A stretch of DNA of 64,000 nucleotides from Candidatus Latescibacterota bacterium (GTDB lineage: Bacteria > Latescibacterota > UBA2968). Positions within the stretch are counted from its first letter, which is position 1. Every line of letters begins with the position of its first letter. Shown here in pieces: positions 9,363 to 25,481 of the stretch. Both the position numbers and the translations under genes were made by a program. The stretch lies in contig OZ241986.1 of NCBI GenBank assembly GCA_965204375.1, positions 3,680,001-3,744,000 on the forward strand, read 5' to 3'. The notes beneath the pieces are model-generated. The model worked only from the letters and a program-made list of their open reading frames with translations. It did no database searches and had not been told where the DNA came from.

Positions 9363-9440
9363 ATCTACCTCGATAGTTTAAGGATGAAAAAAATTCTCGT
9401 AATAATGTATTTTTCAAAACGCGGACCTGTCAAGAACTAA

Positions 9441-10406
9441 CTACCTGCGCCCGGCCAAACGCTCGAGAACGAGCACCAGTCCCAGCCCCAAAAGCGCGAG
9501 TCCTATTGCCCCTATCACCTCGTCCGACCAAACCTCGGGCAACGCATTTACCTGAACCAGAGGCACCACCTCGCCGTGCCGATTGACCATCGTCTCCACC
9601 GTCTCTTTCCACGGCCAGATCTTCCTGAGCGACCCCAGCATCAACCCGGTCAACAGCGCAATCGTCAAATCGTGATAATGCCGAAAAAACCAGTTCAAAA
9701 CGCGCGAAAACGCCATCAGCCCAACCACAGCACCCGCACCAAACAGTGCAATGGTAAACAGATCGCGCGTATTGACTGCGTTGAGAAGATACGGATATTG
9801 CCCCAGCAAAACCAGCACAAAGGACCCGGAAATACCGGGCAAAATCATCGCGCAAATCGCAACCAAAGCAGAACAAAAAATATACGGCGGACTATGCGGC
9901 ATTTCGACCGGCACCAGCCCGACCAAAAAATACGCGCATAGCGTTGCCCCAACAGCGCCCAAAAACATTCTCAAATTCCACTTTGGGATACGCCGCCCCA
10001 CCGTAAAAACAGACGCCAGCACCAGACCAAAGAAAAAGGACCACAGAAAAACAGGCTCATTGTCCAGCAAATAAGTAATCGCGCGCGACAGTGAAAAAAT
10101 CGCAACGAGAATCCCCGCGACAAGCGCGCACAAAAAAGGCCATCGCACATAATTGACCAACGCTCTTATACGCAACCCCATCAGAAGCCGCGCAGATCGC
10201 GCATCAAAAGAACGGATCGAAAGAATCAACTCTTCATAAATCCCCGTAATCAGTGCCATAGTGCCCCCCGACACGCCGGGCACAACATCGGCAGCCCCCA
10301 TGCACACACCCCTCAGCGCAATGCCGAAATAGCTTCTCAAAGACCGCTTTGGTCTGTGCGCCATCTCTTCCATTTCCATATACTCTCCCGGTTCATCTAC
10401 GTTCAT
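9441..10406 (-). CDS. DUF368 membrane protein
   Basis: MGAADVVPGVSGGTMALITGIYE and AMILPGISGS signatures. Confidence 0.9.
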   Translation of the reverse strand: MNVDEPGEYMEMEEMAHRPKRSLRSYFGIALRGVCMGAADVVPGVSGGTMALITGIYEELILSIRSFDARSARLLMGLRIRALVNYVRWPFLCALVAGILVAIFSLSRAITYLLDNEPVFLWSFFFGLVLASVFTVGRRIPKWNLRMFLGAVGATLCAYFLVGLVPVEMPHSPPYIFCSALVAICAMILPGISGSFVLVLLGQYPYLLNAVNTRDLFTIALFGAGAVVGLMAFSRVLNWFFRHYHDLTIALLTGLMLGSLRKIWPWKETVETMVNRHGEVVPLVQVNALPEVWSDEVIGAIGLALLGLGLVLVLERLAGRR

Positions 10407-10582
10407 CTGCGTAAAACGCTCAAATTACTCGCGTTTTTTCTGCGGATCACACTTCAAAATATAGAACGAGAATTCACTACACACAACAGTTTGTCCTTGA
10501 CAAGGCAATAATTCCCTTTTTATTGTTCGCGGCGGGATAATGACGGATTCTATTTGCATCGATGTTTTGACAGGAGATTTTT

Positions 10583-11092
10583 ATGTGGCGCACATCTATA
10601 ACACTCGTCTTTTGTGCCTTATTAATTGGTTGTGGCGACGACATCAAATACCAGGCAGAGCTTCGCGGAACCTGGCTGTTGGAGTCTCGCAAACCCGCGC
10701 AGGGTGAAATCATCCAGAGCCCGCAAATCAGCGGCCTCATCGAATGGTTTCCAACCACACCCACCCAGGCCAAGGTACATCTCTCAGTAACGGACGACAG
10801 ACAGAGCATCAGAGTCATCGACCGTTTATACGATCTACAGGGCACGGCATTTACATATCAATCCAAACTCAGAATCGGCTCGGTAGAAACAGATAGCACA
10901 GATGCAGTTTATGACACAACATCCCAAAATGGCACGGGACAAATCTCCTCTGACGATGCGCGCGTCACACTCACCCACGACAACGGAACGAAATTTGAAT
11001 TCATCGGCACACAACTCACCGTAACATATTCAAACGGTGTAGTCGATACGTGGACACTCAACAAAGATCAAAAAGGTGTTTTGGCAAAATAA
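10583..11092 (+). CDS. Putative lipoprotein (lipocalin-like beta fold)
   Basis: Lipobox LLIGC, then LRGTWLLES; upstream TTGACA-N18-TATTGT at 10497-10526. Confidence 0.65.
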   Translation: MWRTSITLVFCALLIGCGDDIKYQAELRGTWLLESRKPAQGEIIQSPQISGLIEWFPTTPTQAKVHLSVTDDRQSIRVIDRLYDLQGTAFTYQSKLRIGSVETDSTDAVYDTTSQNGTGQISSDDARVTLTHDNGTKFEFIGTQLTVTYSNGVVDTWTLNKDQKGVLAK

Positions 11093-11182
11093 AAAATCAT
11101 TCTCAAAACGCGGTTCAGATCACCAGCGCCTCCCCAATCATTCGCGTGCTGGTCGATGAACCATATTCAAAAGGAGTAAAAA

Positions 11183-11623
11183 ATGGCAGGAACAATCCCC
11201 CTCATCAGTTCAGGTGTAGCAGGACCAGCGGGCGTACTTCATCTTCCTCGCCTGTGGAGCAAAGTCCTGTTGGGCGCCACGGGCAACCTCGAAGAAGGAT
11301 ATGACCAGTGCGGCATGGGTTACGACCAGATGGTTCTCGATGGCCTGGGTCTCGACCGCGATGCCACCGTCGCCTATCTCACCGAAAATCTGCCCTCCTA
11401 TCCGGAATTCGAAGCTTGGGTAATCGAACAGAGCGGCGGCAGCCTCGACAGCAATGCCGTTGCAGAACTCAACGCCGCAATTGAAGGTTACAACCACGCA
11501 GACGATGTCCGCGGGGCCATCCTCGGTGGTGCAGGCATTGACGACGACGGCACAATTCTCGACGCCGTCAACCTGAACAACCTCGATGACTGGACAGAAT
11601 TTCACGCACAACTGACGGGATAG
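11183..11623 (+). CDS. DUF5069-like protein
   Basis: GVLHLPRLWSK and CGMGYDQMVLDGLG motifs; AAGGAG RBS. Confidence 0.65.
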   Translation: MAGTIPLISSGVAGPAGVLHLPRLWSKVLLGATGNLEEGYDQCGMGYDQMVLDGLGLDRDATVAYLTENLPSYPEFEAWVIEQSGGSLDSNAVAELNAAIEGYNHADDVRGAILGGAGIDDDGTILDAVNLNNLDDWTEFHAQLTG

Positions 11624-11644
11624 ACACCCGTCCATCTCGCACAA

Positions 11645-11682
11645 AAAATCCCAGAATGGGAAAAACCATTCTGGGATTTTCT
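11645..11682. terminator. Intrinsic terminator
   Basis: AAAATCCCAGAATGG-GAAAAA-CCATTCTGGGATTTT perfect 15-bp stem. Confidence 0.8.
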
Positions 11683-11861
11683 CTATACCGCTTTCAGGAG
11701 ACCACCATGTTACGAGGTCTTCAATCCATAGATAATAACAATAAAATAGGCTGCGGGAGGGGAGGACCGGTCCCTAATTTTTCTGGCAAAAACCAGAGAA
11801 ACATCCCGCAGCCGTTGAGTTTTTCTGAGTTTGTATTCACACATTTCCAAAATGGCAACTA

Positions 11862-11937
11862 ATATTCTCAAGTTATTAGCTTGAGATACATCCCATCGCC
11901 GACATTTGACTTGCCAGAATCTGTCGGCGACTTCTTT
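11862..11937. ncRNA. Two-hairpin element, copy 1 (candidate leader/antisense RNA)
   Basis: TCTCAAG/CTTGAGA and TCGCCGACA/TGTCGGCGA stems, homologous to 22012-22090. Confidence 0.45.
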
Positions 11938-12034
11938 ATAATAATACAATTGTCACTACAATTTCAACATCAAAAAATTACGCGTACGTCTGATTTCTTA
12001 CGCATACGTCCTCTTTTTTGCATTATATGCCTAA

Positions 12035-12727
12035 TTACTTACGCGCATGTCCTTTTCGATAAGCACGAGGAGACATGCCATATAATCTCTTAAAAGCTTC
12101 GTTTAAACGCGACGATGAACGAAAACCACAGTGTGCTGCAATTTCAAAAATTGGCAATGGAGTTTCTTCAATCAATAATTTTGCCTTTTCAATTCTAACC
12201 TTCCTCAATGATTCACGGAAAGTCTTACCCAAATGTTTTTTGAACAATGCGTAACCATGCGACTTAGAAAATCGAAAATAGCGCATGACGTCTTCAAATT
12301 TTAGATCTGGATTGCTGTAACACTCCTCCAAAAATACTTCAAACCTGGTCTTCCACATATCTCGTGGAGGCATATATCTTTTGACCTGTGTCAAAAAAAC
12401 ATCTCTCTCTATTGGTTTGTCAAATACACTTGTAGCGCCAGCCTTGATCAGTTGTTCGCCCAATTCTGCAGATCGCAAACTTGTCATGATCAGCATAGCT
12501 GTCTGAATTTTTTCCTCCTTCACATGCTTCAATAGCGTTATACCATCTATACCCTCTACATGTAGCTCAACAACAGCAAGAGCAATCTCCTCTTTTTTCA
12601 AAATTTCAAGACCTTCTATCCCATATCCTGCCAGACATATTTCATAGGGTTCATCCCACAAGAATCCTGCAAGCTGTGAGATTACAAGCAGGTCATGATC
12701 TACAATCAGAATTTTCTGCTTTTCCAT
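12035..12727 (-). CDS. Atypical receiver + AraC HTH regulator (paralog 1)
   Basis: C-terminal IFEIAAHCGFRSSSRLNEAFKRLYGMSPRAYR; receiver has Glu at the phosphoacceptor position. Confidence 0.88.
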   Translation of the reverse strand: MEKQKILIVDHDLLVISQLAGFLWDEPYEICLAGYGIEGLEILKKEEIALAVVELHVEGIDGITLLKHVKEEKIQTAMLIMTSLRSAELGEQLIKAGATSVFDKPIERDVFLTQVKRYMPPRDMWKTRFEVFLEECYSNPDLKFEDVMRYFRFSKSHGYALFKKHLGKTFRESLRKVRIEKAKLLIEETPLPIFEIAAHCGFRSSSRLNEAFKRLYGMSPRAYRKGHARK

Positions 12728-12859
12728 AATTCCTCCTGGAGAATTTGAGACCTATCCCTTCACGCTATTCAAGAGAGGCTTCTTGCCGCATAATATTTAT
12801 GTGCAATATCCGTCTATATTTTGCCACCATATTATAATCCGTTTAACCAATAAAAAAAA

Positions 12860-12947
12860 GGGTTATGCAATAAATACATAACCCCTGTCTTATTATGGTC
12901 GGAGCGACTGGATTTGAACCAGCACCCCCTATCACCCCAAGAGGGTG
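12860..12947 (-). repeat. Island attachment-site repeat: 3' part of tRNA-Pro(GGG) plus its terminator
   Basis: 12890-12923 is identical to 24400-24433, similarity continues through the anticodon arm; the GGGTTATG/CATAACCC hairpin is also duplicated. Confidence 0.9.
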
Positions 12948-13017
12948 TGTGTCGTTTTTTGTTTTGAGGTATTCTATAAAGCGTCATCAGATGCGTTGCT
13001 GTCGCGTGTACACCGCT

Positions 13018-14037
13018 TTAAAGAGCCTTCAAAACATCCTTCAGTATGCGCTCTTCCCTTTGAGAAATATCATCTAACAAGGTGATAATCTTCAGAATAC
13101 GATCTATATCCCACGCTCTCTTGACCTTCACTAACGCTCGCAATTTAAGCATCATCAGATGAATCTGATGCGCCTTCTGTTCAACCTCCTTGTACGCCTG
13201 ATGAAACTGGTCTGACGGACGCAAATACCCTCGCTCCTCCAGATAAGCAAGCCTGTCTAACATACAGTGCTTGTGCTCCCAAAGCGTGAACAAATGCCGC
13301 CGATCCCACAATCGAGGATGGACAAACAAATGCGTAAAGTAATCTCGCAAGAGCTTATACGTCCCCATCCCAAAGACGCCTTCAACTGGCTTGCGCAACG
13401 TCCGGTAGTGGATAGACGAATTCTCAGAATGGATGTAGGCTCGCAACTGGTCAATGACAGCATCAATATCAAACTCATAGATACCGTCCTCGTTATACTC
13501 AAAAAGGTCTATCCGATACGATCTTCGTTTCTCGGGATCAATCCAGCGAAACGCCGCTTCAAAATCTGAATACCCAACCCTGGAAACAGCGTAATCCCGC
13601 GCTCGATTAAATCCCAGAGTCTCAAGCGTTTCCGTATCGTCATCGTATCCGAATACGAGAATGGCATGCGGATGATGGATTTTCTCATAAAATGGCGTAT
13701 GTGGTAGAAAATACTCATCGGCCATCAACTGGACATAGAAGCCCTCATCAATCTGATCGCGAATAAACGGCACAATCTGGTTATATACTTTAGCAATTGA
13801 TCGCCTTGGAACAGTGTAGATAGACAGCCACGGCGGTGTGTATGGTCCCTGAAAATAGAAATTAAATCGAATGTTATGTTTGCTTTCATGCAACAGGTCA
13901 ACGGCGAACAGTTGGATGTAATTACAGAAGAACCAGGGAATATACGCATCGTGAAGCGACATAATCGAAAGCCGATAGCCATGGCGGGGATAACCGTGTA
14001 TGGGTGGGGATACCTGTATGGGAAGTGTTTTTTTCAT
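13018..14037 (-). CDS. BtrH-like (papain/C39-like fold) protein, putative ACP-associated acyltransferase
   Basis: DEYFLPHTPFYEKIHHPHAILVFGYDD matches the BtrH N-terminal pattern; adjacent to an ACP; start taken at MKKTLP. Confidence 0.65.
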   Translation of the reverse strand: MKKTLPIQVSPPIHGYPRHGYRLSIMSLHDAYIPWFFCNYIQLFAVDLLHESKHNIRFNFYFQGPYTPPWLSIYTVPRRSIAKVYNQIVPFIRDQIDEGFYVQLMADEYFLPHTPFYEKIHHPHAILVFGYDDDTETLETLGFNRARDYAVSRVGYSDFEAAFRWIDPEKRRSYRIDLFEYNEDGIYEFDIDAVIDQLRAYIHSENSSIHYRTLRKPVEGVFGMGTYKLLRDYFTHLFVHPRLWDRRHLFTLWEHKHCMLDRLAYLEERGYLRPSDQFHQAYKEVEQKAHQIHLMMLKLRALVKVKRAWDIDRILKIITLLDDISQREERILKDVLKAL

Positions 14038-14089
14038 GATGTGTCTCAAAACCCGTGTCATCTGAGTGCGAGCGAAAAATCTATTCTGT

Positions 14090-14356
14090 CTATCCGACAG
14101 CAGGTACCTTCTGTAGTGCTGTGCGAACATAATCGGCCATAGTCTGTACGCTATCAAATAGTTCCACGCGCAAATCTTCATCTGGAACTTCAATGTCAAA
14201 TTCCTCTTCCAGCCCCACAACGATCTCAACCGTCGCCATTGAATTAAGCCCCAGACCACCGCCAAAAAGCGCGTCTTCATCGTCAATTTCTTCTGTGTCA
14301 ACTTCAAGAGACAACGTGCGAATGATCACCTGTTTGACCCGATGTTCAATAGACAT
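14090..14356 (-). CDS. Acyl carrier protein
   Basis: 88 aa, acidic, GLGLNSMATVEIVVGLEEEFDIEV with phosphopantetheine Ser. Confidence 0.9.
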   Translation of the reverse strand: MSIEHRVKQVIIRTLSLEVDTEEIDDEDALFGGGLGLNSMATVEIVVGLEEEFDIEVPDEDLRVELFDSVQTMADYVRTALQKVPAVG

Positions 14357-14364
14357 AACCCCTC

Positions 14365-16278
14365 CTATGCGATAGCTACCTCTGATGTATCATCCTGTGA
14401 AAAATATTGAATCACAGTTTCCACAAGACGTTGTTGACCCGTCTCTGAAAGAATCTCAATCGCAGGCACACAAAACGTATCTTGTAGTTTTTTGAGGTGC
14501 CGATCAATTTGAGATTGTGCCATCTTCCTGGGCGTAATCATACTGTGCTCATAAGCTGTTTGGATGTGTTTTTCGTGGTCGCCCATCGCCAGCAAGATAG
14601 TCGGTGCTTTGCACACCACACGTATGCCATCTATGGTATCGCGGATGTACTCTTCTGCATCAATGCTGTTGACCACCAGAATGCAGGCATCGGGTTTCAC
14701 CCCCAGTAAAAACGCCAGTGAAGACAAGCAATGTGTACTGTGTTCCTGGACATGATAGGGAATGGTCCCCGACTGAGAGCCTGTCAGGATAATATCGGGC
14801 TGTATGCGCTGGCAAATCTCCCGCATTTTGTAATCCAGATACGGGATATAATGTTGAAATGGCAGTTTGAGCGGCGAAGCATAGCCCATTGGAAAAACAG
14901 CATCCATGCCAAATAGCCGAGAATGGTGCTCGGTACCAATCTGCCCAACTTTATACCCTTTTTGGATGAGCCTGCGTCTGAGCGCGAGTTGTAAGGTGAA
15001 CTTGCCCTGCTGAGAACTCGTGCCCATCACAGACAGCACGGGCACATCTATAGGCGGGAGTGCGTTGAAATTTTGAATTGCCTGTGCAAGTTCTTCTCTA
15101 TGAACGTGAGGATAGGCAACGCACAGCCCCTTTTTGTCCGCTGTGTCATACAGATCACCGTAAAGGTTTGGGTCAAGTGCCTGAAAACTGAACACATGGC
15201 ATCCAGCATCGAGTGCCAATTGTACATATTCTCTGAGCAAATCGCGCTTGCGGATGCGAGATAGCTGATCCACATAACCCAGGATAAGCGTATCTACATC
15301 TGCTAAGGCGCGGCGGATATTCGGACTAATCCGCAGATTTGCAACAGGTTCGCCAATCACCTTACCCGCATCTTTGCCCACCATCCCTTTACCAATGGGA
15401 TCGGCGACGCCGACAATCTCAAAATCGAGTAAATTGCGATAACGCACCAGGCTATGCATCTCTTTGTTATACGGATACAACACGGCTTTCTTGATATAGG
15501 CATAATCCTCTTGAAAATCTTTTCGGTGTGACTGACCATCCGATTTGGACCTGTGAGATATTTCGTTTAATGCTTTTTCTTGTAATAATAACCGAATATC
15601 TTGAACAAAACATTTTGGATGCTGTTCCAATAGGTGTGCGATAATACCCGCAATATGGGGTGCAGCAAAGCTATTTCCCCCAGTCATAATGTGTTTTCCG
15701 TTTAACCAGCACACGCGCTGTTCATCCCCTCGCGCCACACATTCGATGCGCTGATCCTTGCGGTAATAAAATCCATCTGGTTCATAAATCACACCACCTG
15801 TCACACCAATCACTTCGGGAAATACCGCAGGATAACTCTCACCCCCGTCATTGCTCTCAGCAGCTACGAGAATCACGCCAGCATCAACCGCTTTACGGCA
15901 CACCTTTTGGAGAGTCTCCTTAAACGTCACATCCGTTGTGCCCAGGCTCAAATTCACCACATCCATCTCATTGTCAATGCACCACTGAATCGCCGCAATT
16001 AACGCCCGCCCATCCGCCATCAAAGACGCATCAAAAATCCGCACGCTATATAACACTACATCGGGAGCCTTCTTCCTGATAATCCCGGCACACGCTGTGC
16101 CATGTCCTGCACAGTCGGCGTGATCATCCCAAAACACAGTCTCACCATCTTGACCAATCTGAATATGAACACCGCCCGCAATTTCATCCACATCTGTATG
16201 AGATGCGTCTATGCCGCTATCAACAATAGCAATACGAATCCGAGAACGATTTTCTTTTGGCATGACATATTTCTCCAA
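14365..16278 (-). CDS. S8 subtilase fused to a DUF1611/TIGR04066-like P-loop domain
   Basis: Triad IVDSG / GHGTAC / GNSFAAP; C-terminal VMGTSSQQGKFT, KVGQIGT and PDACILVVN motifs; no signal peptide. Confidence 0.8.
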   Translation of the reverse strand: MEKYVMPKENRSRIRIAIVDSGIDASHTDVDEIAGGVHIQIGQDGETVFWDDHADCAGHGTACAGIIRKKAPDVVLYSVRIFDASLMADGRALIAAIQWCIDNEMDVVNLSLGTTDVTFKETLQKVCRKAVDAGVILVAAESNDGGESYPAVFPEVIGVTGGVIYEPDGFYYRKDQRIECVARGDEQRVCWLNGKHIMTGGNSFAAPHIAGIIAHLLEQHPKCFVQDIRLLLQEKALNEISHRSKSDGQSHRKDFQEDYAYIKKAVLYPYNKEMHSLVRYRNLLDFEIVGVADPIGKGMVGKDAGKVIGEPVANLRISPNIRRALADVDTLILGYVDQLSRIRKRDLLREYVQLALDAGCHVFSFQALDPNLYGDLYDTADKKGLCVAYPHVHREELAQAIQNFNALPPIDVPVLSVMGTSSQQGKFTLQLALRRRLIQKGYKVGQIGTEHHSRLFGMDAVFPMGYASPLKLPFQHYIPYLDYKMREICQRIQPDIILTGSQSGTIPYHVQEHSTHCLSSLAFLLGVKPDACILVVNSIDAEEYIRDTIDGIRVVCKAPTILLAMGDHEKHIQTAYEHSMITPRKMAQSQIDRHLKKLQDTFCVPAIEILSETGQQRLVETVIQYFSQDDTSEVAIA

Positions 16279-16398
16279 CGAATGATGCTTAATCTCTGAC
16301 TTTGCAGGCTACGTCAACGATTTCCCCTGAATCATCACTGACATAACGAAATTATGGGAGATGCGCTATCAATGATTGTAACTTTGATCGCTTTCATT

Positions 16399-16513
16399 TT
16401 CTCCAAAATACTCTCCTGAAACAGGGCACTGCATTGCATCACAAAGCCGATATTTCGACGCAGAAAATTGAGGCGATACTACTTGATTCAATCCCATCAA
16501 TCAAGATCTGACC
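16399..16513 (-). pseudogene. Degenerate fragment of an ABC-exporter ATPase gene
   Basis: Aligns with 18653-18768; reads GQILIDGI/[frameshift]/YRLNFLRRNIGFVMQCSALFQESILE versus GQVLIDGVDIRQYRLNSLRQNIGFVMQGSALFQGSILE. Confidence 0.85.
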
Positions 16514-16524
16514 TTATAACGAAT

Positions 16525-17370
16525 TTATTTCAAATGAATCCATAGATCATTATAAATGTAGTAAAAAATATAGGCATTATAGAAGTGAATCATTAGATTT
16601 CCAACGGCGTGGATACTCCAACACAAAACCAAAGATCCGGTTATCTCGAAAATTAATGTTGTAATTATGGCAGAAAAAGTCGCAGGTATTCCACTGAATC
16701 GAAAATGAATTACACCAAAAACAATAGATGATAACAACACACTTCCTACGACATTTATCCGCTTGCGTAAAGAAGAATACAGCATCCCACGAAATAATAA
16801 CTCTTCCACAAAAGGGCCAATAATAACAGTTAGTAAAAGTGAAGAAATAACAACTTCGAGTTTCCACCGAAATTCTTCACTAGGGTAATATGGGCTAATC
16901 ATATTTATTGGAAAAATAAGTAAAAAAGGCAACGTTATCACTGTAGCTTTTAGCACCCCGATGACGCTACCTAATACCAAATATTTCCTCAAACGATATC
17001 CGGTCAGCGTTAAATCTCGCAGTGAAAGATTATATTTATATGATATAACTCCCCAAATGATAAGTAAGCTGGTCAAATAAGACAAAATTAGGCATAATGG
17101 TCTGCCCAGCAAATAAATATAAGACGGAGAAAATTGAGTTAAAAACCTTTCAAAGAAGGGTGAAGTCTGAACGAGATAAACAAGTAATATGGGAAATCTC
17201 AGGGCGCATTGTCCCAATAATAGCGTTAAAATTATGAGACTGAGAGGGATCCAAAATGACCAAGGAGATTGCCAAATGCCATTAACGGACCTCCCAAAAA
17301 ACTCAGGTCTTTCATTTAAAACGCGGAAGTCATTCACTGATTTTTGAAGCTGTTTTAAAACCCTCGCCAT
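16525..17370 (-). CDS. CPBP/CAAX (Abi) intramembrane protease, candidate immunity protein
   Basis: GPFVEELLFRG, FGVIH and HAVGN motifs; very AT-rich. Confidence 0.9.
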   Translation of the reverse strand: MARVLKQLQKSVNDFRVLNERPEFFGRSVNGIWQSPWSFWIPLSLIILTLLLGQCALRFPILLVYLVQTSPFFERFLTQFSPSYIYLLGRPLCLILSYLTSLLIIWGVISYKYNLSLRDLTLTGYRLRKYLVLGSVIGVLKATVITLPFLLIFPINMISPYYPSEEFRWKLEVVISSLLLTVIIGPFVEELLFRGMLYSSLRKRINVVGSVLLSSIVFGVIHFRFSGIPATFSAIITTLIFEITGSLVLCWSIHAVGNLMIHFYNAYIFYYIYNDLWIHLK

Positions 17371-17542
17371 TAAGCAAATCTCTTAAGTAAAAGGTGAATC
17401 ATAGCGATATAAGTAAATGGCTTCACAGTTGACCTCAAGCCTTCATAATCCTTTGATAGCCACCGAAAGGGACTGCAACGACCTGTAGTAAAACGTATCA
17501 ATCACAGGCTTGAAACCCAAGCCCTAAATACTCCACCAAAAC

Positions 17543-17672
17543 GATGCTGTTGCCGAATTCCGAATTCTATCTCCATGCAACTAAACATAGAACTTACAGA
17601 GCCTGCATTCAGGCCACAAACCGCCGTTTTTCCAACCGTCGATTCCCTCTCGACCAATTCGGCAACAGCATC
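17543..17672. mobile_element. 130-bp MITE
   Basis: Perfect 17-bp terminal inverted repeats GATGCTGTTGCCGAATT; 6-bp target duplication CAAAAC (17537-17542, 17673-17678). Confidence 0.88.
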
Positions 17673-17743
17673 CAAAACGGGGTAACTCCAAAGAACTATT
17701 GCACTGGGGGCTCCTTACGGTTCTTTTTTGCTACCCTATTAGC

Positions 17744-18154
17744 TTAATCGCCGGTAACTTTTTTCAATGCTGCTGCACCTACTTCTTGACCAGTTGTTAC
17801 TACGGCTTCCTCTCCTGCCTCTTTTGCAACAGTTCTGGCCACCACTCTTGCACCTGCACTAGCAGCTCTAGCTCCAGCTATAGTAGGACCAACGATAAAC
17901 TCAACTGGACTAACAGCATCTCCCAAACCTGGTGCATGAATAAGCATGCTATCCGCCCAAGCAGGACTGCCAGGAACTTGACTGTCTGTCGTATCGGAAG
18001 GTGATATTTCAAAGTCTATATAAACAGCGTTGGCATCATCATCAGCCTTCGCATCAAGTTCATCATAGACCTCACAGCCATATGCTTCTATACAACAGTT
18101 CACATAGACCTTTTTGGGGGATTTTCTCAATGCTGGTAATGCTAAATCTTCCAT
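17744..18154 (-). CDS. Putative precursor/substrate protein (136 aa) with CLI_3235-like leader
   Basis: AAGGAG RBS; MEDLALPALRKSPKKVYVNCCIEAY leader, then acidic linker and Ala/Val-rich helical C-terminus; lies between exporter and CAAX gene. Confidence 0.65.
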   Translation of the reverse strand: MEDLALPALRKSPKKVYVNCCIEAYGCEVYDELDAKADDDANAVYIDFEISPSDTTDSQVPGSPAWADSMLIHAPGLGDAVSPVEFIVGPTIAGARAASAGARVVARTVAKEAGEEAVVTTGQEVGAAALKKVTGD

Positions 18155-18216
18155 ATTGTACTCCTTTCTTAATTTTAAGTTATACATTTATGAAGCCCCC
18201 AATGCAATAAAAATCA

Positions 18217-19932
18217 TTAAATCCTCGCGGCTCGCTCCTGGAGCATGGCATAAACACCATCTTGCAGCAGCAAAACTTCGTGGCTGCCTTCTTCCGCAAT
18301 TCTTCCCTGATCAATGACAACAATTTTATCTGCTCGTTGGATGGTTGACAGGCGATGGGCAATCACGATCACGGTCCTTTGCTTGCAAATTTCCTTCATC
18401 GCTTCCTGAATATAAAATTCAGATTCATTATCCAGTGCAGCAGTGGGTTCATCTAAAATTAAGATGGGTGTGTTCTGTAGTAACACTCTTGCGAGCGCGA
18501 CCCTTTGCCGCTGTCCCTCTGAAAGTTGCGCTCCCTGCTCACCGATGACAGTGTGATAACCGTTGGGGAGCCGCGTGATAAAATCGTGGATATAGGCTGC
18601 CCGGGTTGCGGCTTCAACATCGTTCATGGAAATCGGTTTGTTAAACGTCAAATTCTCCAGAATACTCCCTTGAAACAGGGCACTGCCTTGCATCACAAAG
18701 CCGATATTTTGTCGCAGGGAATTGAGGCGGTATTGCCTGATATCAACCCCATCAATCAAAACCTGACCATCCACTGGATCGTAGAACCTCGGAATGAGCT
18801 TTGCCAAGGTAGATTTGCCTGACCCGCTTCTTCCAACAATGGCGACTGTCTCATCAGCCTCAATATCGAGGTTGATCTCGTTTAACACCACCCTTTCGGG
18901 TTGATATGCAAAACTGACGTCTCGAAACTCTATCCTTCCATGAATCTCATTGAGTTCAGCCAACTGCGGTTCATCGCGTATGTCAGGCGTGATATTATAG
19001 ACTTCAAAAAAGCGATCTGTGTGAACCAGTGTAGATTCAATGCGTCGCAATAGGCCAATGAGACTTTTAATAGGTCCATACAAATATCCCACATAGCCCG
19101 TAAAAGCCATATAACTCCCCAACGTCAAATTGTCAGATAACACCTCGTGCCACCCATAGAAACTGTAGGCAAGTGTTCCGCCCGTCTTAAAAATAGTGCC
19201 AGCATAGCCACTTATCCCCTGAAATAGCGACAATTTCATTCTGAGATTTGCAACATTGATGAATAATCCCTGTAGCTTCCGAAAAAACGAAGTCTCCAAC
19301 CCTAAAGACTGTACTGTTCTAATTGAAGAGATGGACTCGTAATTCTTTGCCGATAACTCTGCCGCACGCTCCGCAATCTCTTTCGTATATTTGCGTATAA
19401 ACCGTCTCGAAATCAAAACCAACAGCGTATCTAAGGGCAAGATCGTGAGGCTGATCAGTGCCAGTTTCCAATTGATAAAGAACAGAATGGGCGGAAAAAT
19501 TACGAGTTGGAGCGAATTGATAATCAGTGTGTTAATCAAACCGATGACACTGGCAATGGAACTCCGCATATCCCTGAATCGAGATAGTATTTCACCGGTC
19601 TCCCGGTTGTCAAAAAAACTAAAATCCAGCGTTTGGATATGTTTGTAAAAACGCGCTTGAAAATCATATCCCATCCTAATGCCAACACACTGACCAAAAT
19701 ACCCACTGATAAACCTCATCCCACCCACCCCCAACGACATCAGCATGCCCAACAACAGAACAAAATTCAACAGAGAGAAATCTTTGTGCGGATATACGTC
19801 ATCGATCATTATTTTCGTGAAATAAGGACCAGGTATCTGAAACAGCATGAACAAAATGCCAACACAAAGCGACTGGATAATATACCGCCAATAAGGTCGC
19901 AGCATCTTAACAACAGTGAATATTTGCGTCAA
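18217..19932 (-). CDS. ABC exporter (TMD+ATPase), bacteriocin/T1SS type, lacking a C39 peptidase domain
   Basis: GRSGSGKS Walker A, LSEGQRQR signature, ILILDE; RETGEILSRF in the TMD. Confidence 0.92.
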   Translation of the reverse strand: MTQIFTVVKMLRPYWRYIIQSLCVGILFMLFQIPGPYFTKIMIDDVYPHKDFSLLNFVLLLGMLMSLGVGGMRFISGYFGQCVGIRMGYDFQARFYKHIQTLDFSFFDNRETGEILSRFRDMRSSIASVIGLINTLIINSLQLVIFPPILFFINWKLALISLTILPLDTLLVLISRRFIRKYTKEIAERAAELSAKNYESISSIRTVQSLGLETSFFRKLQGLFINVANLRMKLSLFQGISGYAGTIFKTGGTLAYSFYGWHEVLSDNLTLGSYMAFTGYVGYLYGPIKSLIGLLRRIESTLVHTDRFFEVYNITPDIRDEPQLAELNEIHGRIEFRDVSFAYQPERVVLNEINLDIEADETVAIVGRSGSGKSTLAKLIPRFYDPVDGQVLIDGVDIRQYRLNSLRQNIGFVMQGSALFQGSILENLTFNKPISMNDVEAATRAAYIHDFITRLPNGYHTVIGEQGAQLSEGQRQRVALARVLLQNTPILILDEPTAALDNESEFYIQEAMKEICKQRTVIVIAHRLSTIQRADKIVVIDQGRIAEEGSHEVLLLQDGVYAMLQERAARI

Positions 19933-19975
19933 GATTCCGAATCTCCGATTTGCTTATGTGGTTAAAACCACCCGA

Positions 19976-21154
19976 TTAAAAAACCAGCGGATTTTGCTTG
20001 TCAACGATACCAAAAGCCTCTTTGATCTTTTTCCACCCAATTTGCCATAAAAAACTTCTTTCAATAATGATCTTCGCATCTAATCTCATACCATAAGCAA
20101 CGGGATATATCTGATCGCCACTGCGAACAAAGGGTTCATCGATCAATATCTTCACGGGGTATAATGTCAGTGCAGTTGCATTTGGAGGCACGACTTGATT
20201 CCGACTGGGCAATTCACTAACCCTACCACTAAAAATTTTGTAATTCATATGCGGAAACGCATGGATGTACAACTTGACATCTTGACCCATTTCAATTTTT
20301 GAAATATCCACCTCTTGCACAAAAACCCTCGCCTGCCATTCATTTAACTGCGCCAATTCCAATACCGGGCTGCCAACCGAAACCCTATCTCCTTCTATTG
20401 TTTCAATATCTGAGGTCAGCACAATTCCTGAGATTGGAGAAATGATGGTGGTTTTTCTTATCTGTTCCTGAATCCAATCGCGTTCTTGCAGGAGCTTATC
20501 CCCGACCAGTTTTAGCGTCTGGATTTCTTTCTCTCTGACAACCAAAGCATCGAGTTCAATTTCCAGATAGGTCATGCGTTGCAGGACGCGGTTGAGATTA
20601 TTTTCTTGAAGTTTTACAGGTAAAAGCGTCTCAAGAGGTCGTGTCTGTACCTCTCTCTCTTTGAGATATTTTTGATACAATTGTTGCTCCTGTAAAATCT
20701 GTTCGAGCCGGAGACCACCCGCTTCGTGTTCAAGTCGCGCCTGGTCGAGACTCGATTCTATTCTTTGCCGATCAAAAAATAATGTCTCTCTGAGTTCCTC
20801 TCTCTGTCGCTGATTAATTGCGATCTCTTTCTCAATTTTCGCAGCCTCTTTTCTCCACTCTGAAGCACCCAAAATAAAAAGCGTATCTCCTTTTGCAACC
20901 TGCTGACCAGCGTGAATAAGCACCTTCTCTATCGTGCCCACAGTCTCTGATTTGACAAATTTTTTCTCAACGGGTTCAACGTGACCAGAAGCCTCAACAC
21001 TGATTTCCATTTCGACATCCCAACCTAAAATCACAATCCCCGCAACGAGCAGAATAGTCGATGCTATAATAGACAGAATGAAGAATCTTATAAACTCAAA
21101 GCCCTTTAACTTGATCTCGTGATCAGATTCAGGCTGTTTGGTGGCTAACGCCAT
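19976..21154 (-). CDS. HlyD-family membrane fusion protein
   Basis: N-terminal TM segment, lipoyl half-motifs (GQQVAKGDTL, IISPISGIV), coiled coil. Confidence 0.9.
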   Translation of the reverse strand: MALATKQPESDHEIKLKGFEFIRFFILSIIASTILLVAGIVILGWDVEMEISVEASGHVEPVEKKFVKSETVGTIEKVLIHAGQQVAKGDTLFILGASEWRKEAAKIEKEIAINQRQREELRETLFFDRQRIESSLDQARLEHEAGGLRLEQILQEQQLYQKYLKEREVQTRPLETLLPVKLQENNLNRVLQRMTYLEIELDALVVREKEIQTLKLVGDKLLQERDWIQEQIRKTTIISPISGIVLTSDIETIEGDRVSVGSPVLELAQLNEWQARVFVQEVDISKIEMGQDVKLYIHAFPHMNYKIFSGRVSELPSRNQVVPPNATALTLYPVKILIDEPFVRSGDQIYPVAYGMRLDAKIIIERSFLWQIGWKKIKEAFGIVDKQNPLVF

Positions 21155-21252
21155 ACTGGAGACATAAAATAAGTTGCGATAACATAACGGCCAAAGCCGA
21201 TGGACTTAGAGTGGGCAAATAGACATTTAACTCACACATTTTCCGAAAACGT

Positions 21253-21948
21253 CTAAATTTCTCCACGTCTAAATTTTCTCCGGTACTGGGTAGGAGAAAT
21301 GCCATGTATCTTTTTGAAAGCCTCATACAAACGCTTTTGTTCACGAAACCCACATTTATCTGCAATTTCATAGATCCGCAATGGCGGTTTTTCCATCAAG
21401 TGCTCTTGTGCCTTTGCAACTCTGATCTCCCTCAATTTTTCCAAGAACGTCTTGCCCAAATGTTTTTTGAACAGCTTGCAGCCATAAGATCTACAGAACA
21501 GGAAATGGTCCATAAGGTCGTCAAATTTTAGCTCTGGATCGCTGTATTTCTCATTCAGAAATGATTCCAACTCTGTTTTCCACGGATATCGTGAAGACAT
21601 AGACTTTCTGATCTTCACCAGAAATTTATCTCTCATAATGGGGAATACACTTACAACCTTTCTCTCGAGGATTTCTTCGCTCAACTTCAGGGATCCAGAC
21701 CTTGCCCTGAGCAAGATATCCGCCTGAGTTTTTTCCTCCGATAGGCACGTCACAAAGTGTATCCCATCAACATCCTCTATATACATCTCGGCTATGGCAA
21801 GGTCTATCTGCTCGCTTCTTAAAATATCAAGCCCTTCTCGCCCATCTGGTGCAGTAAATACGTCATGAGGGCCATCTATCAAGAATCTTATGAACGCCGA
21901 CATAGTATAGGTTGCATGACCTATAATCAGAATTTTCTGCTTATCCAT
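21253..21948 (-). CDS. Atypical receiver + AraC HTH regulator (paralog 2)
   Basis: IYEIADKCGFREQKRLYEAFKKIHGISPTQYR; shares LKF.D, LFKKHLGKTF with 12035-12727. Confidence 0.88.
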   Translation of the reverse strand: MDKQKILIIGHATYTMSAFIRFLIDGPHDVFTAPDGREGLDILRSEQIDLAIAEMYIEDVDGIHFVTCLSEEKTQADILLRARSGSLKLSEEILERKVVSVFPIMRDKFLVKIRKSMSSRYPWKTELESFLNEKYSDPELKFDDLMDHFLFCRSYGCKLFKKHLGKTFLEKLREIRVAKAQEHLMEKPPLRIYEIADKCGFREQKRLYEAFKKIHGISPTQYRRKFRRGEI

Positions 21949-22011
21949 AGCACCAGCAGCAAGCCACAAATCTCAATGGTTGACAATTGAGATTTGGATC
22001 GTTATTTTCAG

Positions 22012-22663: not shown

Positions 22664-24349
22664 TCATGTCGCATCTGTCTGCTGGTGCTGGCCGATAAAA
22701 CCAATAACAACGCGCGCCTTGCTCTTGTCCCAATCAAAAGCGATTCGAATTGTGTAACGCGCATTCCTATTGCTTCCCGTTCCGATGTGCTTTTTTAGCC
22801 AATGGGTCTTGTTACCAACTTTAGTGGTGTACCAATCCTCGTACTTATTCATTGTTATATCGCTCTGGTGCCCCTTGTACCACCACTTACACGCTTTCCG
22901 AATGGACAAATCGGGATTTTTTAGACTGATCTCCCCCTGGCGCGCCCCATAATACGTGGTCGCCAACCATTGCAGCGCGTCCCACACAGCTTTGGGATGC
23001 TTGAATGGGTTATCCTCAACGCACGATTTCCCATTGAGCTGGAAGAGAAGTTTATCGTCGAATCTTTCTTTGGCAAGCTCAACAGCATCATTCACGCTCT
23101 CGATGGACAAATCCTCATCTTCACTCGAGATTGCCACTCCCTTACTCGCCTCCTCAATATAGTACCTTCTCCACCTCTCGGCCTCCTTTTGCAACTTTTC
23201 GATCTCATCCTGACGCTTGTATAATTGGCTTTGCAGCGATTCGACCTCTTCTTCATGCTCTGATTTTAACGCGATATAGTCTGCCTCTGAAAACGCACGT
23301 TGATTATCGGATTCTTGAGCGGATTGTTCCTCAGTTGGAACATCGGATTCTTGTTCTTCCTCTATCGGTGGTGTGGGAGATTCATTCATGAGCCGATCTA
23401 TGCGGTCTATAATCGGCAAGAGGCGATTCTCCAGCTTTACCCGCTTGGGCCTTCTCTCGCGTTCCTCCTCCAGAACAGGCGCGGGTTCGTGAATAGGTTG
23501 GTAATCAGTTAGCAAAGACCGCATGTTCTGAGTATCCTGAAGGACTTTTGGAAGGTCAGCATCGGGCAATAAATGCGCCGCAGACCATGACGCGAGATCT
23601 TTTTGGAAAAATTTCAGTTCCGATGAAAAAACATCCCTGACCTCAACGATCAGAGCGTCGAGGTCATTGGCTTGCTTGTATTGCGCCTTCTTTGTCTCTA
23701 TAATGGTCTGCACCGATTCGACAAAGCCCGGAATCGCCTCCCCCCACTCTGGCGCATTAGCAGGCAGTGATCTCAAATATTCGAGCCCTTGCGACAAAAC
23801 ATCGTCTTTTTTTTCTTTAGCTCCAGGTATTTTGCCCGACACATAGCACAGCATCAGCTCAATATCCTCTTTATCAAATTCGCTGTGGCGTTCAAGAATT
23901 TTGTCCGCCTCCCGCTCCCATACATCACGGAACCAGAAACCTTGGAATTGATTCTCCGAAAAATCTGGATACTCAGCCGGCATTGCCAGATCCTCGAGAT
24001 GTTTAACAACCACATCGCCGAGCGCGTCATGGGACTCCGCCCAGACCTTCAAAACCGCGCCCGTTAGTTTGTCCGATTGAGTTACAGCTTTCAGGACAGG
24101 CTCTTGTAAATAATGGGCTGGCGCGCGATCTGTGTTTTTGTACCCATCAACTCTTATGTACTCGCGTATCGCCGAGTTGAGCGCTCTCCTCGCTTCTGTT
24201 GACACCTTACGCCGTGAATCAATCGCGCGTTGGACCACAGCCTCGTGATATTCAGAATTCATAAATCCAAAGATCGTACTAATTTGCAAACTATCTGATT
24301 TCGTTATATCGCCTGAGAACATGTCTGACATTGTACAAATCTCCTTCAT
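22664..24349 (-). CDS. Hypothetical coiled-coil protein with RelE/ParE-like C-terminal domain
   Basis: C-terminal KHIGTG...YTIRIAFDWD...VVIGFIGQH pattern after a long charged coiled coil; first gene downstream of the tRNA. Confidence 0.55.
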   Translation of the reverse strand: MKEICTMSDMFSGDITKSDSLQISTIFGFMNSEYHEAVVQRAIDSRRKVSTEARRALNSAIREYIRVDGYKNTDRAPAHYLQEPVLKAVTQSDKLTGAVLKVWAESHDALGDVVVKHLEDLAMPAEYPDFSENQFQGFWFRDVWEREADKILERHSEFDKEDIELMLCYVSGKIPGAKEKKDDVLSQGLEYLRSLPANAPEWGEAIPGFVESVQTIIETKKAQYKQANDLDALIVEVRDVFSSELKFFQKDLASWSAAHLLPDADLPKVLQDTQNMRSLLTDYQPIHEPAPVLEEERERRPKRVKLENRLLPIIDRIDRLMNESPTPPIEEEQESDVPTEEQSAQESDNQRAFSEADYIALKSEHEEEVESLQSQLYKRQDEIEKLQKEAERWRRYYIEEASKGVAISSEDEDLSIESVNDAVELAKERFDDKLLFQLNGKSCVEDNPFKHPKAVWDALQWLATTYYGARQGEISLKNPDLSIRKACKWWYKGHQSDITMNKYEDWYTTKVGNKTHWLKKHIGTGSNRNARYTIRIAFDWDKSKARVVIGFIGQHQQTDAT

Positions 24350-24372
24350 TTTTATTCATAAAAAACAAACAA

Positions 24373-24397
24373 GGGGTTATGCACAAAGCATAACCCC
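24373..24397 (-). terminator. Terminator downstream of tRNA-Pro(GGG)
   Basis: GGGGTTATGC-ACAAA-GCATAACCCC followed by a T-rich tract on the minus strand. Confidence 0.75.
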
Positions 24398-24405
24398 CGT
24401 TATTA

Positions 24406-24482
24406 TGGTCGGAGCGACTGGATTTGAACCAGCGACCCCCATCACCCCAAGATGGTGCGCTACCGAGCTGCGCTACGCTCCG
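24406..24482 (-). tRNA. tRNA-Pro (anticodon GGG)
   Basis: Reverse complement CGGAGCGTAGCGCAGCTCGGTAGCGCACCATCTTGGGGTGATGGGGGTCGCTGGTTCAAATCCAGTCGCTCCGACCA. Confidence 0.97.
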
Positions 24483-24608
24483 ACAACTCGTTCGTGAATA
24501 AATTTACCCATTTTGTTAGAGACCGTCAAGATAAACAAACGATCAGCGGGCAACCCGCCACCCGCCGTCTTCGTCCCCTTCACACTTCCCACTTCCTACT
24601 TCACACTT

Positions 24609-25481
24609 CTATCTACCCGAACTCAAAAAACTCTCGGATTGCAGATCCACATCAAAAATGCGAATAAATTGATGGGGCTTTGTCGTCTCGCCGATCAACT
24701 CGGGTATGCCATCGCCATCGAGGTCCGCGTAGCCAATCTTCTCACCAAAACCATCGCGGTATTCCCACTCAACGCGCTGATAAGTCGCGCCAATAACAAA
24801 CCCGGTATTGAGCACAATCTCAAGCTCACCGTCGTCATCGAGATCGCCAACAGCCATACTCTGTGCCCACAGCCCCTGCTCGCTGCGCCATTCTAAAAAC
24901 AGATTTTTGCAATCAAACACAAACAAGCGCCCAATCTGTGCGGCGCGCTCCTGATCGAGATTATCGCGCAATCCACTCGGCGGTCGATAGCTCCGACTCT
25001 CCGCAGCATCCTCGCCGCAAAACACCAGCTCGAGTTGCGGATCGTCGTCGATATTTTCAATCACCATGGCCGAAACCGATGCAAACTCATCGTCCGTGCT
25101 TCGCCATATCTCATGAAAATCGCTGGCGCGATAAAACGCAATATCTCCAGCATGGGTATAGGCAACGATCTCGAGTTCGTCATCGACATCGATATCCAGA
25201 ACAAAAACTTCTGCAATCTCCGCTCTCAATGGCGGACTCCTCCACACCTCTCGAAAGCGTCCCTCTTGCATTTCCAACACGTAAACTGCCCCATGACGGT
25301 CGCCATACACAATGCGCGGTGCCTCATCATCTTTACCCACAATTGCTTTTACAGCTCGCATTTCGGGTACAAACCCGCCAAAAGAAATCGCGTCATTATC
25401 TTTCCAATGAAACCACGCCAGATCGGTCGCTGAAATTGTAGCTGTAAGGGCAAAGAGCCAGAGCAGAATCCTTATGACCAT
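24609..25481 (-). CDS. Secreted FG-GAP/VCBS-repeat protein
   Basis: Signal peptide; repeated DIDVDDELEIV, DLDDDGELEIV, DLDGDGIPELI motifs. Confidence 0.75.
   Translation of the reverse strand: MVIRILLWLFALTATISATDLAWFHWKDNDAISFGGFVPEMRAVKAIVGKDDEAPRIVYGDRHGAVYVLEMQEGRFREVWRSPPLRAEIAEVFVLDIDVDDELEIVAYTHAGDIAFYRASDFHEIWRSTDDEFASVSAMVIENIDDDPQLELVFCGEDAAESRSYRPPSGLRDNLDQERAAQIGRLFVFDCKNLFLEWRSEQGLWAQSMAVGDLDDDGELEIVLNTGFVIGATYQRVEWEYRDGFGEKIGYADLDGDGIPELIGETTKPHQFIRIFDVDLQSESFLSSGR

Follow-up and report, generated by a model that had tools for sequence, protein, structure and literature searches.

An island inserted into a tRNA-Pro gene of a Candidatus Latescibacterota bacterium carries a candidate leader-dependent peptide maturation and export system with an S8-DUF1611 fusion protein

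The gene cluster described here is located in a 64,000-nucleotide stretch of DNA (the window) from a Candidatus Latescibacterota bacterium (NCBI GenBank assembly GCA_965204375.1, contig OZ241986.1, positions 3,680,001 to 3,744,000 of the forward strand), and all coordinates are positions within this window unless another contig or locus is named. It is a candidate system for the leader-dependent maturation and export of peptides or proteins, and comprises genes for a subtilisin-type (S8) protease fused to a DUF1611-like domain, an acyl carrier protein (ACP), a BtrH-like protein, an ABC exporter, a HlyD-family adaptor, a CPBP-type membrane protein, a regulator and a small open reading frame (ORF) as candidate precursor, all in the same orientation (Table 1). 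Families were assigned by listing the ORFs and then searching them with Pfam and NCBIfam profiles. An earlier inspection of the sequence alone, the first-pass annotation, had named the same genes on the minus strand, and these searches recovered all of them in place.

Table 1. Features of the island and its ends (aa, amino acids; att, attachment site).
Feature	Position	Strand	Evidence or remark
Left att-like direct repeat	12853..12947	.	partial tRNA-Pro 3' half with its terminator hairpin
BtrH_N/DUF4872-like protein, ~340-347 aa	13018..14061	-	BtrH_N 27 bits, cut-off 29.7
ACP, 88 aa	14090..14356	-	PP-binding 42.7 bits, cut-off 20.8
S8-DUF1611 fusion, 632-637 aa	14365..16278	-	Peptidase_S8 (PF00082) 87.5 bits, cut-off 21.8; DUF1611 (PF07755) 36 bits, cut-off 25
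ABC nucleotide-binding-domain remnant (pseudogene fragment)	16359..16513	-	flanked by the fusion and CPBP genes
CPBP/Rce1-like ('CAAX') intramembrane protease homologue	16525..17370	-	PF02517 64.3 bits, cut-off 22.4
136-aa ORF, candidate precursor	17744..18154	-	leader family; AGGAG 7 nucleotides ahead of ATG
ABC exporter (permease and ATPase), 571 aa	18217..19932	-	ABC_membrane 130 bits, ABC_tran 123 bits
HlyD-family periplasmic adaptor	19976..21154	-	HlyD_D23 45 bits, HlyD_3 45 bits
Response-regulator receiver and AraC-type HTH regulator	21253..21969	-	HTH_18 63 bits
561-aa protein, unmatched to any family	22664..24349	-	tRNA-proximal island end
tRNA-Pro(GGG) and right att-like repeat	24367..24482 (tRNA itself 24406-24482)	-	ARAGORN for the tRNA

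The segment that holds these genes is a genomic island, with the 3' end of the tRNA-Pro gene as its insertion site. It extends from ~12.9 to 24.4 kilobases (kb), i.e. over 11.5 kb, and the 3' half of tRNA-Pro(GGG) is directly repeated at its two ends. The repeats are identical over 34 nucleotides (nt) of the 3' part of the tRNA (12890-12923 and 24400-24433), and their similarity reaches ~95 nt at 85% identity with the terminator hairpin included (G000:C1:3692853-3692947). Moreover, two genomes of the same genus, G073 and G078, have empty sites, where nothing separates the left flank from the tRNA and the right flank; there, the gene next to the tRNA is the outer regulator, a homologue of 12035-12727. 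The island status rests on these exact and imperfect repeats together with the two empty sites. At the same site, two further genomes have larger or tandem insertions, with ~10.8 kb between the flanks in G072 and ~20.8 kb plus extra partial repeats in G080. The G+C content of the region with the cluster genes is 0.41-0.47, compared to 0.50-0.57 in the flanks.

The fusion protein probably starts at the ATG at 16263, which corresponds to 632 aa. It has no signal peptide and no prodomain, and its catalytic Asp is situated only ~20 residues from the start. Both halves score above the cut-offs of their Pfam families, as the first-pass annotation had expected of Peptidase_S8 and DUF1611, and the S8 half contains the Asp/His/Ser triad: among 18 fusion homologues with 55-91% identity D15, H54 and S198 are invariant and N138 is nearly so. 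The best NCBIfam model for this half is QhpE (NF049966) with 157 bits, below its cut-off of 165, and no neighbouring gene matched the qhp structural or maturation models of NCBIfam. QhpE, which among characterised proteins is the closest to this S8 domain, is described as a cytoplasmic subtilisin-like protease, which strips a 28-residue leader from QhpC before the translocation by an efflux ABC transporter (PMC7876137). Given this similarity and the missing signal peptide, the S8 half appears to be a cytoplasmic QhpE-like leader peptidase, consistent with the earlier proposal.

The second half of the fusion was folded separately, because Foldseek with the whole-fusion model (predicted local distance difference test score 81) returned subtilisins only. 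The C-terminal domain folded alone reached a score of 94 and matched 2g0t, 2obn and 7xrj (DgcN) with E-values of 5.5e-14 to 1e-11 and template modelling scores of 0.57-0.70, which supports the DgcN-type fold predicted for the DUF1611-like domain; the N-terminal half was found to have a subtilisin fold. When PDB sequences were searched with the C-terminal domain, 2g0t was the only match, at an E-value of 0.3, and DUF1611_N scored 19.8 bits, below its cut-off of 22.6. A P-loop of the form G-x4-GK-x-T is invariant in the 18 homologues and, over all comparisons, invariant or nearly so. Furthermore, the C-terminal half aligns to the complete profile of TIGR04066 (142.3 bits, E 1.8e-41, positions 1-361 of 361). 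Since protease and DUF1611 domain are one polypeptide throughout the family, leader cleavage and the DUF1611 reaction are probably functionally coupled.

The gene downstream of the fusion encodes an ACP, and its phosphopantetheine attachment site, a Ser, is kept in 58/58 homologues from genome loci and in 47/47 from metagenome loci. The role of a carrier assigned to it earlier fits this conservation, which also makes a carrier-dependent modification of the precursor plausible. The start of the third enzyme, the BtrH-like protein, is probably between 14037 and 14061. The BtrH-like proteins of related loci fall into two subfamilies. One of them, the sister subfamily, shows the full BtrH_N and DUF4872 (and C39_2) architecture with a conserved Cys. 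The window-type proteins are linked to it by profile comparison with hhalign (probability 84%, E 7.8e-6), and the nearest ESM Atlas clusters of the window protein are BtrH_N, C39_2 and DUF4872. Hence, the proposed relationship to BtrH holds at the level of homology to this subfamily, but the active site is not carried over unchanged: the column of the Cys is a Leu in the window subfamily, and an invariant Ser (Ser32) is found in the neighbouring column. Besides Ser32, Gly138 and Asp140 are invariant, and the His of an H-x5-GYD motif is present in 8/10 aligned sequences and in 94% of 48 family members. No solved relative was found for the window-type profile.

The alignments of the ABC exporter to the peptidase-bearing models TIGR01193 and TIGR03796 begin only at profile positions 149 (of 708) and 151, respectively, and the protein begins in the membrane domain; therefore it is an ABC exporter without a C39 peptidase domain. 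On the models of type I secretion, the ABC protein reaches 403 bits on TIGR01846 (cut-off 726) and the HlyD protein 82 bits on TIGR01843 (cut-off 209). Export by a C39-less ABC protein with HlyD, as annotated before, is thus the predicted route with both genes present. It had also been noted that the island contains no genes for an acyl-AMP ligase, a phosphopantetheinyl transferase (PPTase) or TolC. This was confirmed, and one PPTase gene and seven OEP/TolC-type genes are located elsewhere in the genome, the latter all beyond the limits of the window. Moreover, no GNAT, ketosynthase or AMP-ligase gene was detected by Pfam and NCBIfam in the entire window.

The candidate precursor can be divided into a basic leader of 25 aa that ends with I-E-A-Y, followed by an acidic stretch and a 111-aa core with a single Cys. 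In related loci, the ORFs between the ABC and fusion genes have a common N-terminal pattern. To define a leader family, seeds were selected with a short pattern requiring A-Y, and three rounds with a hidden Markov model (HMM) were run; out of 24,035 segments (stop to stop), 32 matched at E<0.01. All 27 aligned candidate precursors (numbering of the window protein) have Met1, Ala24 and Tyr25, and at least 90% have Glu28, with a mean column identity of 22% overall and hypervariable cores. The leaders up to A-Y measure 19-25 aa, carry a net charge of 0 to +5 and share the motif V/I-x-A-Y; over the ten residues after it, the net charge is -2 to -7 in every one of the 27 precursors. The cores vary from 39 to 138 aa with 0-6 Cys. 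This conserved N-terminal leader on candidate precursors beside the system genes bears out the earlier idea of a leader-directed system. The ORF of the window was placed into the family on the basis of its orthologue in locus L061 (59% identity), which has a canonical leader, and of the shared A-Y-x-x-E; a second orthologue in locus L005 is 90% identical. Like other leader-bearing ORFs, it is placed between the genes for ABC and CPBP. It matched no family in Pfam, NCBIfam or PHROGs, and the other precursors matched none in NCBIfam (TIGR04065 included) or PHROGs. Subtilisins generally prefer an aromatic residue at P1 and a hydrophobic one at P4. The hydrophobic-x-Ala-Tyr end of the leader suits this preference, so that the cut is tentatively placed after Tyr25; in this case, the product would be an acidic polypeptide of 111 aa, close to the cargo of ~110 aa estimated before.

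The gene set recurs in other genomes. A word-index search with the fusion protein produced 7999 candidates, of which 1060 matched at E<=0.001, and both Pfam domains were present in 118 of the 120 matches listed. A scan of one genome per species gave 118 relatives, from which 76 distinct loci were analysed. Neighbours were counted within 8 kb of the fusion gene in those 55 loci that have at least 8 kb on both sides, using mechanically called and clustered ORFs and family HMMs. An ACP gene was found in 50/55 loci (in 43 directly downstream of the fusion), followed by the ABC exporter (48/55), the BtrH-like protein (42/55) and HlyD (41/55). Less constant are CPBP (25/55), the receiver-AraC regulator (24/55), a CxxC thioredoxin-like membrane protein (23/55), a DUF5128 beta-propeller (19/55), a TPR protein (18/55), rhodanese (12/55), MauE (10/55) and a GNAT protein (10/55), whose gene directly precedes the fusion and which is the only one of the GNAT, ketosynthase and AMP-ligase families to recur in the related loci. 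Leader-bearing ORFs were detected within this distance in 20/55 loci. In addition, the genome itself contains a paralogous cluster (L004, G000:C1:3772000-3791000; genes at 7552-17510 of that locus, minus strand) 86 kb from the window. Its fusion (88%), ACP and BtrH-like proteins are ~88-90% identical to those of the window; ABC, HlyD and CPBP are far more diverged, and it has its own regulator, extra GNAT and TPR genes and an unrelated leader-bearing candidate precursor. No tRNA gene was found in the 19 kb fetched for this cluster. Judged from the counts in 55 loci and from the paralogous cluster, the co-occurrence of the gene set is far beyond chance.

The set is also not restricted to close relatives. 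A metagenome scan added 80 loci with 32-74% identity to the fusion. Among the remote ones (32-39% identity), seven have at least 4 kb of flank, and they contain the ABC gene in seven cases, ACP and BtrH-like genes in six each, no HlyD or CPBP gene, and an ORF with a radical SAM motif in 7/7. Three of these radical SAM ORFs are SPASM peptide maturases nearest to TIGR04463, with a weak match to CcpM (TIGR04068). The neighbourhood search that had been suggested thus found the set conserved elsewhere, with fusion, ACP, BtrH-like and ABC genes kept in the remote loci; the first-pass annotation had named a lack of such joint conservation as grounds for its refutation, and these results go against that. 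Among the 76 genome loci, a radical SAM motif ORF is present in four; in L071, from a KSB1 genome, it directly precedes the fusion gene (2072-2953). The FastTree tree is unrooted with many long branches, and no direction of evolution for the radical SAM gene, whether lost or gained, is drawn from it. In the remote radical SAM loci, short Cys-rich peptides start with the same kind of leader and its motif, most clearly in L144 (E 1.2e-5) and L122 (E 2.2e-4), with six further, weaker matches; none of these peptides reaches TIGR04065. The C-terminal domain as query retrieved 1447 clusters (50% identity, E<=0.001), mostly of ~600-aa proteins, whose named members belong to Senegalia massiliensis (Clostridia), Oscillospiraceae and Haliovirga. 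Matches to the TIGR04066 model at E<=1e-10 occur in 84/168 genomes of the phylum, 0/168 of them above the cut-off, and in 0/14 control genomes, with up to seven matches per genome. The first-pass annotation had contrasted the system with its clostridial counterparts. This contrast is valid for the window, which has no radical SAM gene and a single-Cys core, but it was overstated for the family: the S8-DUF1611 fusion occurs in Clostridia too, relatives from the same phylum have Cys-rich cores, and remote relatives combine radical SAM/SPASM proteins with the same leader motif.

Taken together, the system is real, complete and mobile, and it is a variant of the bioinformatically defined but experimentally uncharacterised TIGR04066-type maturation systems. 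We consider it somewhat more probable than not (roughly 55%) that the island is one complete unit of a large family for leader-dependent peptide or protein maturation and export, in which the 136-aa ORF is the substrate, receives an ACP-borne modification and leaves via ABC and HlyD. According to this model, the V/I-x-A-Y end of the basic leader would be recognised by the cytoplasmic S8 domain, with cleavage directly behind the invariant Tyr. The DgcN-fold domain, the ACP and the BtrH-like protein would act jointly on a phosphopantetheine-borne group, which would most likely be placed on the precursor. In one conceivable division of labour, loading or use of the thioester would fall to the P-loop domain, and transfer of the group to an amine would be the task of the BtrH-like protein with its Ser, His and Asp residues. 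The acidic polypeptide would then exit through the C39-less ABC protein, HlyD and an outer-membrane channel encoded elsewhere. CPBP/Abi proteins are known as bacteriocin immunity factors, and the CPBP protein likely serves in immunity or processing. As to the product, a secreted polypeptide similar to bacteriocins is probable. A more specific version of the model, which we regard as tentative and less probable than not, is that the fused enzyme couples leader removal to a carrier-dependent (amino)acylation of the new acidic N-terminal region of ribosomal polypeptides of up to ~140 residues, together with the ACP and a Ser-type BtrH-like transferase.

Several observations weigh against this interpretation. 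Regarding the enzymes, formal membership in TIGR04066, TIGR04069 and BtrH_N fails: the fusion stays at 142 bits below the TIGR04066 cut-off of 200, the ACP reaches 17.3 bits on TIGR04069 (cut-off 70), and the BtrH-like protein scores 26.8-27.1 bits on BtrH_N (cut-off 29.7), aligning to profile positions 81-127 only. The first-pass annotation had named TIGR04065, TIGR04066, TIGR04069 and BtrH_N as profiles to be searched, and all of them remained under their curated cut-offs. The C-terminal domain shares ~15% identity with the DgcN structure. Moreover, the nearest solved relatives of the sister BtrH subfamily are Azi29/AziU3, and the activity described for AziU3/U2 is that of an aziridine synthase rather than of an acyltransferase (PMC12559475); consequently, the BtrH-like fold does not fix an acyl-transfer chemistry. 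No acyl-ACP synthetase, ketosynthase, AMP-ligase or other acyl-activating or chain-building family recurs in the 76 genome loci. Regarding the precursor, the leader of the window is missed by the leader HMM, and the invariance of A-Y is partly built in by the seed pattern that demanded it. Between the window and L005 precursors 14 codon changes are non-synonymous and four synonymous, with no excess at third positions, and hence they give no signal of purifying selection; the pattern fits a fast-evolving cargo, short of proving that the ORF is coding. Finally, 69/76 genome loci are titled Latescibacterota or Latescibacteria, often several per genome, so that the counts are not independent, and the literature found on TIGR04066 and TIGR04069 consists of genome-mining or cluster descriptions only, with no member studied.

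The alternatives can be weighed against the same data. A rather unlikely one is that of an unmodified bacteriocin-like product: the S8 domain would only strip a new type of leader, ABC and HlyD would export an unmodified membrane-active or toxic polypeptide, CPBP would provide immunity, and ACP, DUF1611 domain and BtrH-like protein would have tasks unrelated to a covalent change of the cargo, such as regulation, quality control or self-protection. It would agree with the hypervariable cores, with Gly/Ala-rich hydrophobic stretches in the cores of L019, L010, L012 and L006 (maximum 19-residue hydropathy 1.6-2.2), with the multi-copy systems and mobile island, and with a CPBP gene in nearly half of the loci, given the role of such proteins in immunity. 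However, the ACP (Ser kept in 105/105 copies) is more constant than CPBP or HlyD, the DUF1611 domain is fused to the leader protease family-wide, and the core set survives at 32-39% identity.

The second alternative is the full model of the first-pass annotation, in which the new N-terminus receives a fatty acyl group from acyl-ACP, which would lead to a secreted lipoprotein or lipo-bacteriocin. It shares the evidence for carrier dependence with the maturation model, the relative DgcN is an N-acyl (acetyl) transferase according to its PDB title, a GNAT gene directly precedes the fusion in 10/55 loci including the paralogous cluster, and lipidated ribosomal peptides reportedly exist. Yet no family for fatty acid activation or synthesis recurs near the fusion in the 76 genome loci, the window is without a GNAT gene, the residues after the cut are strongly acidic with a variable position +1 (Ser, His, Gly, Gln, Asp, Glu), and the generic models matched best by the ACP are uninformative on its cargo. 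An acyltransferase together with an in-cluster source of a fatty acyl donor, as is characteristic of lipidated RiPPs (peptides made by the ribosome and modified after translation), is not present. Hence, a lipid or fatty acid as the ACP-borne group is not supported, since genes for acyl activation or chain building do not recur and a GNAT gene is missing from the window, and lipidation is in our view unlikely.

It is still less probable that the 136-aa ORF is not the substrate or not a gene at all, and that the enzymes have another target, a peptide encoded elsewhere, or use the ACP to build a small molecule for export by the ABC protein. The failure of the leader HMM on the window leader, the prevalence of non-synonymous changes, the small share of loci with leader-bearing ORFs (20/55) and the activity of BtrH and AziU3 relatives in small-molecule pathways could be explained in this way. 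Nevertheless, the frame is open in both L005 and L061, the latter with its canonical leader, a Shine-Dalgarno sequence precedes the ORF, its placement between ABC and CPBP genes follows the general pattern, and the enzyme is fused to a leader-type protease. The maturation of a periplasmic enzyme subunit in the manner of QhpC or of the small subunit of methylamine dehydrogenase, with no toxin involved, is very improbable despite QhpE being the best S8 model, MauE, thioredoxin-like and rhodanese genes in related loci and the AraC-type regulators that accompany the system as described for qhp operons (PMC7876137), because no dehydrogenase subunit or haem protein is found in the window or recurs in the loci, the cores are hypervariable instead of conserved, genomes have up to seven matches and the location is a mobile island.

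Some further features of the island and of related loci should be mentioned. The Response_reg score of the island regulator is 28.5 bits, just below its cut-off, and a second receiver-AraC regulator, its paralogue, is encoded just outside the island (12035-12727, minus strand). The ABC remnant (16359-16513) matches the island's own ABC protein in tblastn with E 9e-13 and an in-frame stop, and 116 nt of it are 86% identical to the island's ABC gene, which suggests past recombination between cluster types; in L010, a similar ABC fragment comes after the BtrH-like gene. No integrase or recombinase was recognised among the island proteins by Pfam and NCBIfam. The 561-aa protein occupies the slot next to the tRNA and att-like repeat where an integrase would be expected; it has no match in Pfam, NCBIfam or PHROGs, its nearest ESM Atlas clusters are unnamed, and a homologous fragment adjoins a regulator in L019. 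A prophage origin was rejected; none of the three proteins tested matched a phage family of PHROGs. A scan of the island for promoters and terminators gave counts equal to the shuffled expectation. Beyond the tRNA, at ~24576-24611, a ~34-nt element has copies with 91-97% identity at many sites in the same genome and in genomes of the same genus, and it is probably a dispersed short repeat.

Among the related loci, L009 (2626-10008) contains three tandem TPR-CPBP-GNAT triplets, some with truncated GNAT, ahead of one fusion gene, which look like stacked remnants of several cassettes. In L016, L018, L020 and L021 (~12.7-20.3 kb), short Cys-rich leader-bearing ORFs alternate with genes of DUF5128 six-bladed beta-propellers, and thioredoxin-like, rhodanese and MauE genes come after this array. 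For a 47% identical fusion fragment on a 1606-nt contig titled Thermoplasmatota archaeon (L078), a stray from binning is a likelier explanation than a true member from an archaeon.

The fusion, ACP and BtrH-like proteins represent a conserved core in hundreds of sequence clusters, which gut Firmicutes share with marine and sediment lineages. If the more specific version of the model, with leader removal and (amino)acylation coupled in one fused enzyme, is true, it would mean a new route of post-translational modification for well over a thousand proteins in several phyla, and tRNA-inserted islands would mobilise interchangeable units of a maturation cassette plus variable toxin; the structure of the present island shows how such cassettes spread and exchange cargo. 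The Latescibacterota loci offer experimental handles, i.e. the leader motif, the predicted cut site, the invariant carrier Ser and candidate catalytic residues, with natural substrates of 39 to 138 residues and no radical SAM partner to complicate the analysis. Identifying the cargo of the ACP would assign a function to DUF1611-type domains in peptide maturation, and might reveal a carrier-dependent protein modification.

Searches of the literature found nothing on DUF1611 together with RiPPs (DUF1611 alone gave unrelated work only) and nothing on this system under BtrH or ACP with RiPPs. The nearest described systems are the CLI_3235/CcpM systems of Firmicutes (TIGR04065-TIGR04069), which are defined by comparative genomics only. 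They resemble the present system in the full-length alignment of TIGR04066 to the C-terminal half, in the adjacent ACP-type partner, in the subtilisin-type protease and ABC transporter of the set, and in the same kind of leader on the Cys-rich peptides of remote radical SAM loci. In contrast, all four models are below cut-off or unmatched in the window, which has no radical SAM gene, a core of ~110 aa with a single Cys, and BtrH-like, HlyD and CPBP genes in addition. The SacP23 cluster of Paenibacillus polymyxa combines radical SAM, TIGR04066 and TIGR04069 proteins with a subtilisin-like protease, whose roles are presented as guesses; as described there, this protease is a separate gene, unlike the window protease with its fused DUF1611-type domain (PMC10731318).

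With the QhpE/QhpF system, the island shares a prodomain-less cytoplasmic subtilisin-like protease, a leader of ~20-30 residues, a peptidase-less ABC protein and an AraC-type regulator, as far as these are described for qhp (PMC7876137). It differs in the QhpE score below 165, the lack of qhpABCDG genes, the fusion of the protease to DUF1611 and the hypervariable substrates. The DUF1611/DgcN structures (2g0t, 2obn, 7xrj) have the same two-domain fold with the conserved P-loop; the window domain, however, is only distantly related in sequence, forms part of a protease fusion and has an ACP as its partner, and its substrate is presumably a polypeptide, whereas that of DgcN is free D-glutamate. 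For DgcN, we take the N-acetyltransferase chemistry from the PDB title of 7xrj and from a published description.

BtrH is the ACP-dependent acyltransferase of butirosin biosynthesis, coupled to the carrier BtrI. The window protein is genomically coupled to a carrier protein in the same way, and it is connected to BtrH through the sister subfamily with full BtrH_N and DUF4872, but it is below the BtrH_N cut-off and has a Ser in the column next to the Cys of that subfamily. Finally, the island resembles the export systems of double-glycine bacteriocins and microcins, in which ABC and HlyD genes lie by a small variable polypeptide and CPBP on mobile, multi-copy loci. It departs from them in an exporter without C39 and a leader that is not of the double-glycine type, with cleavage assigned to a separate cytoplasmic serine protease.

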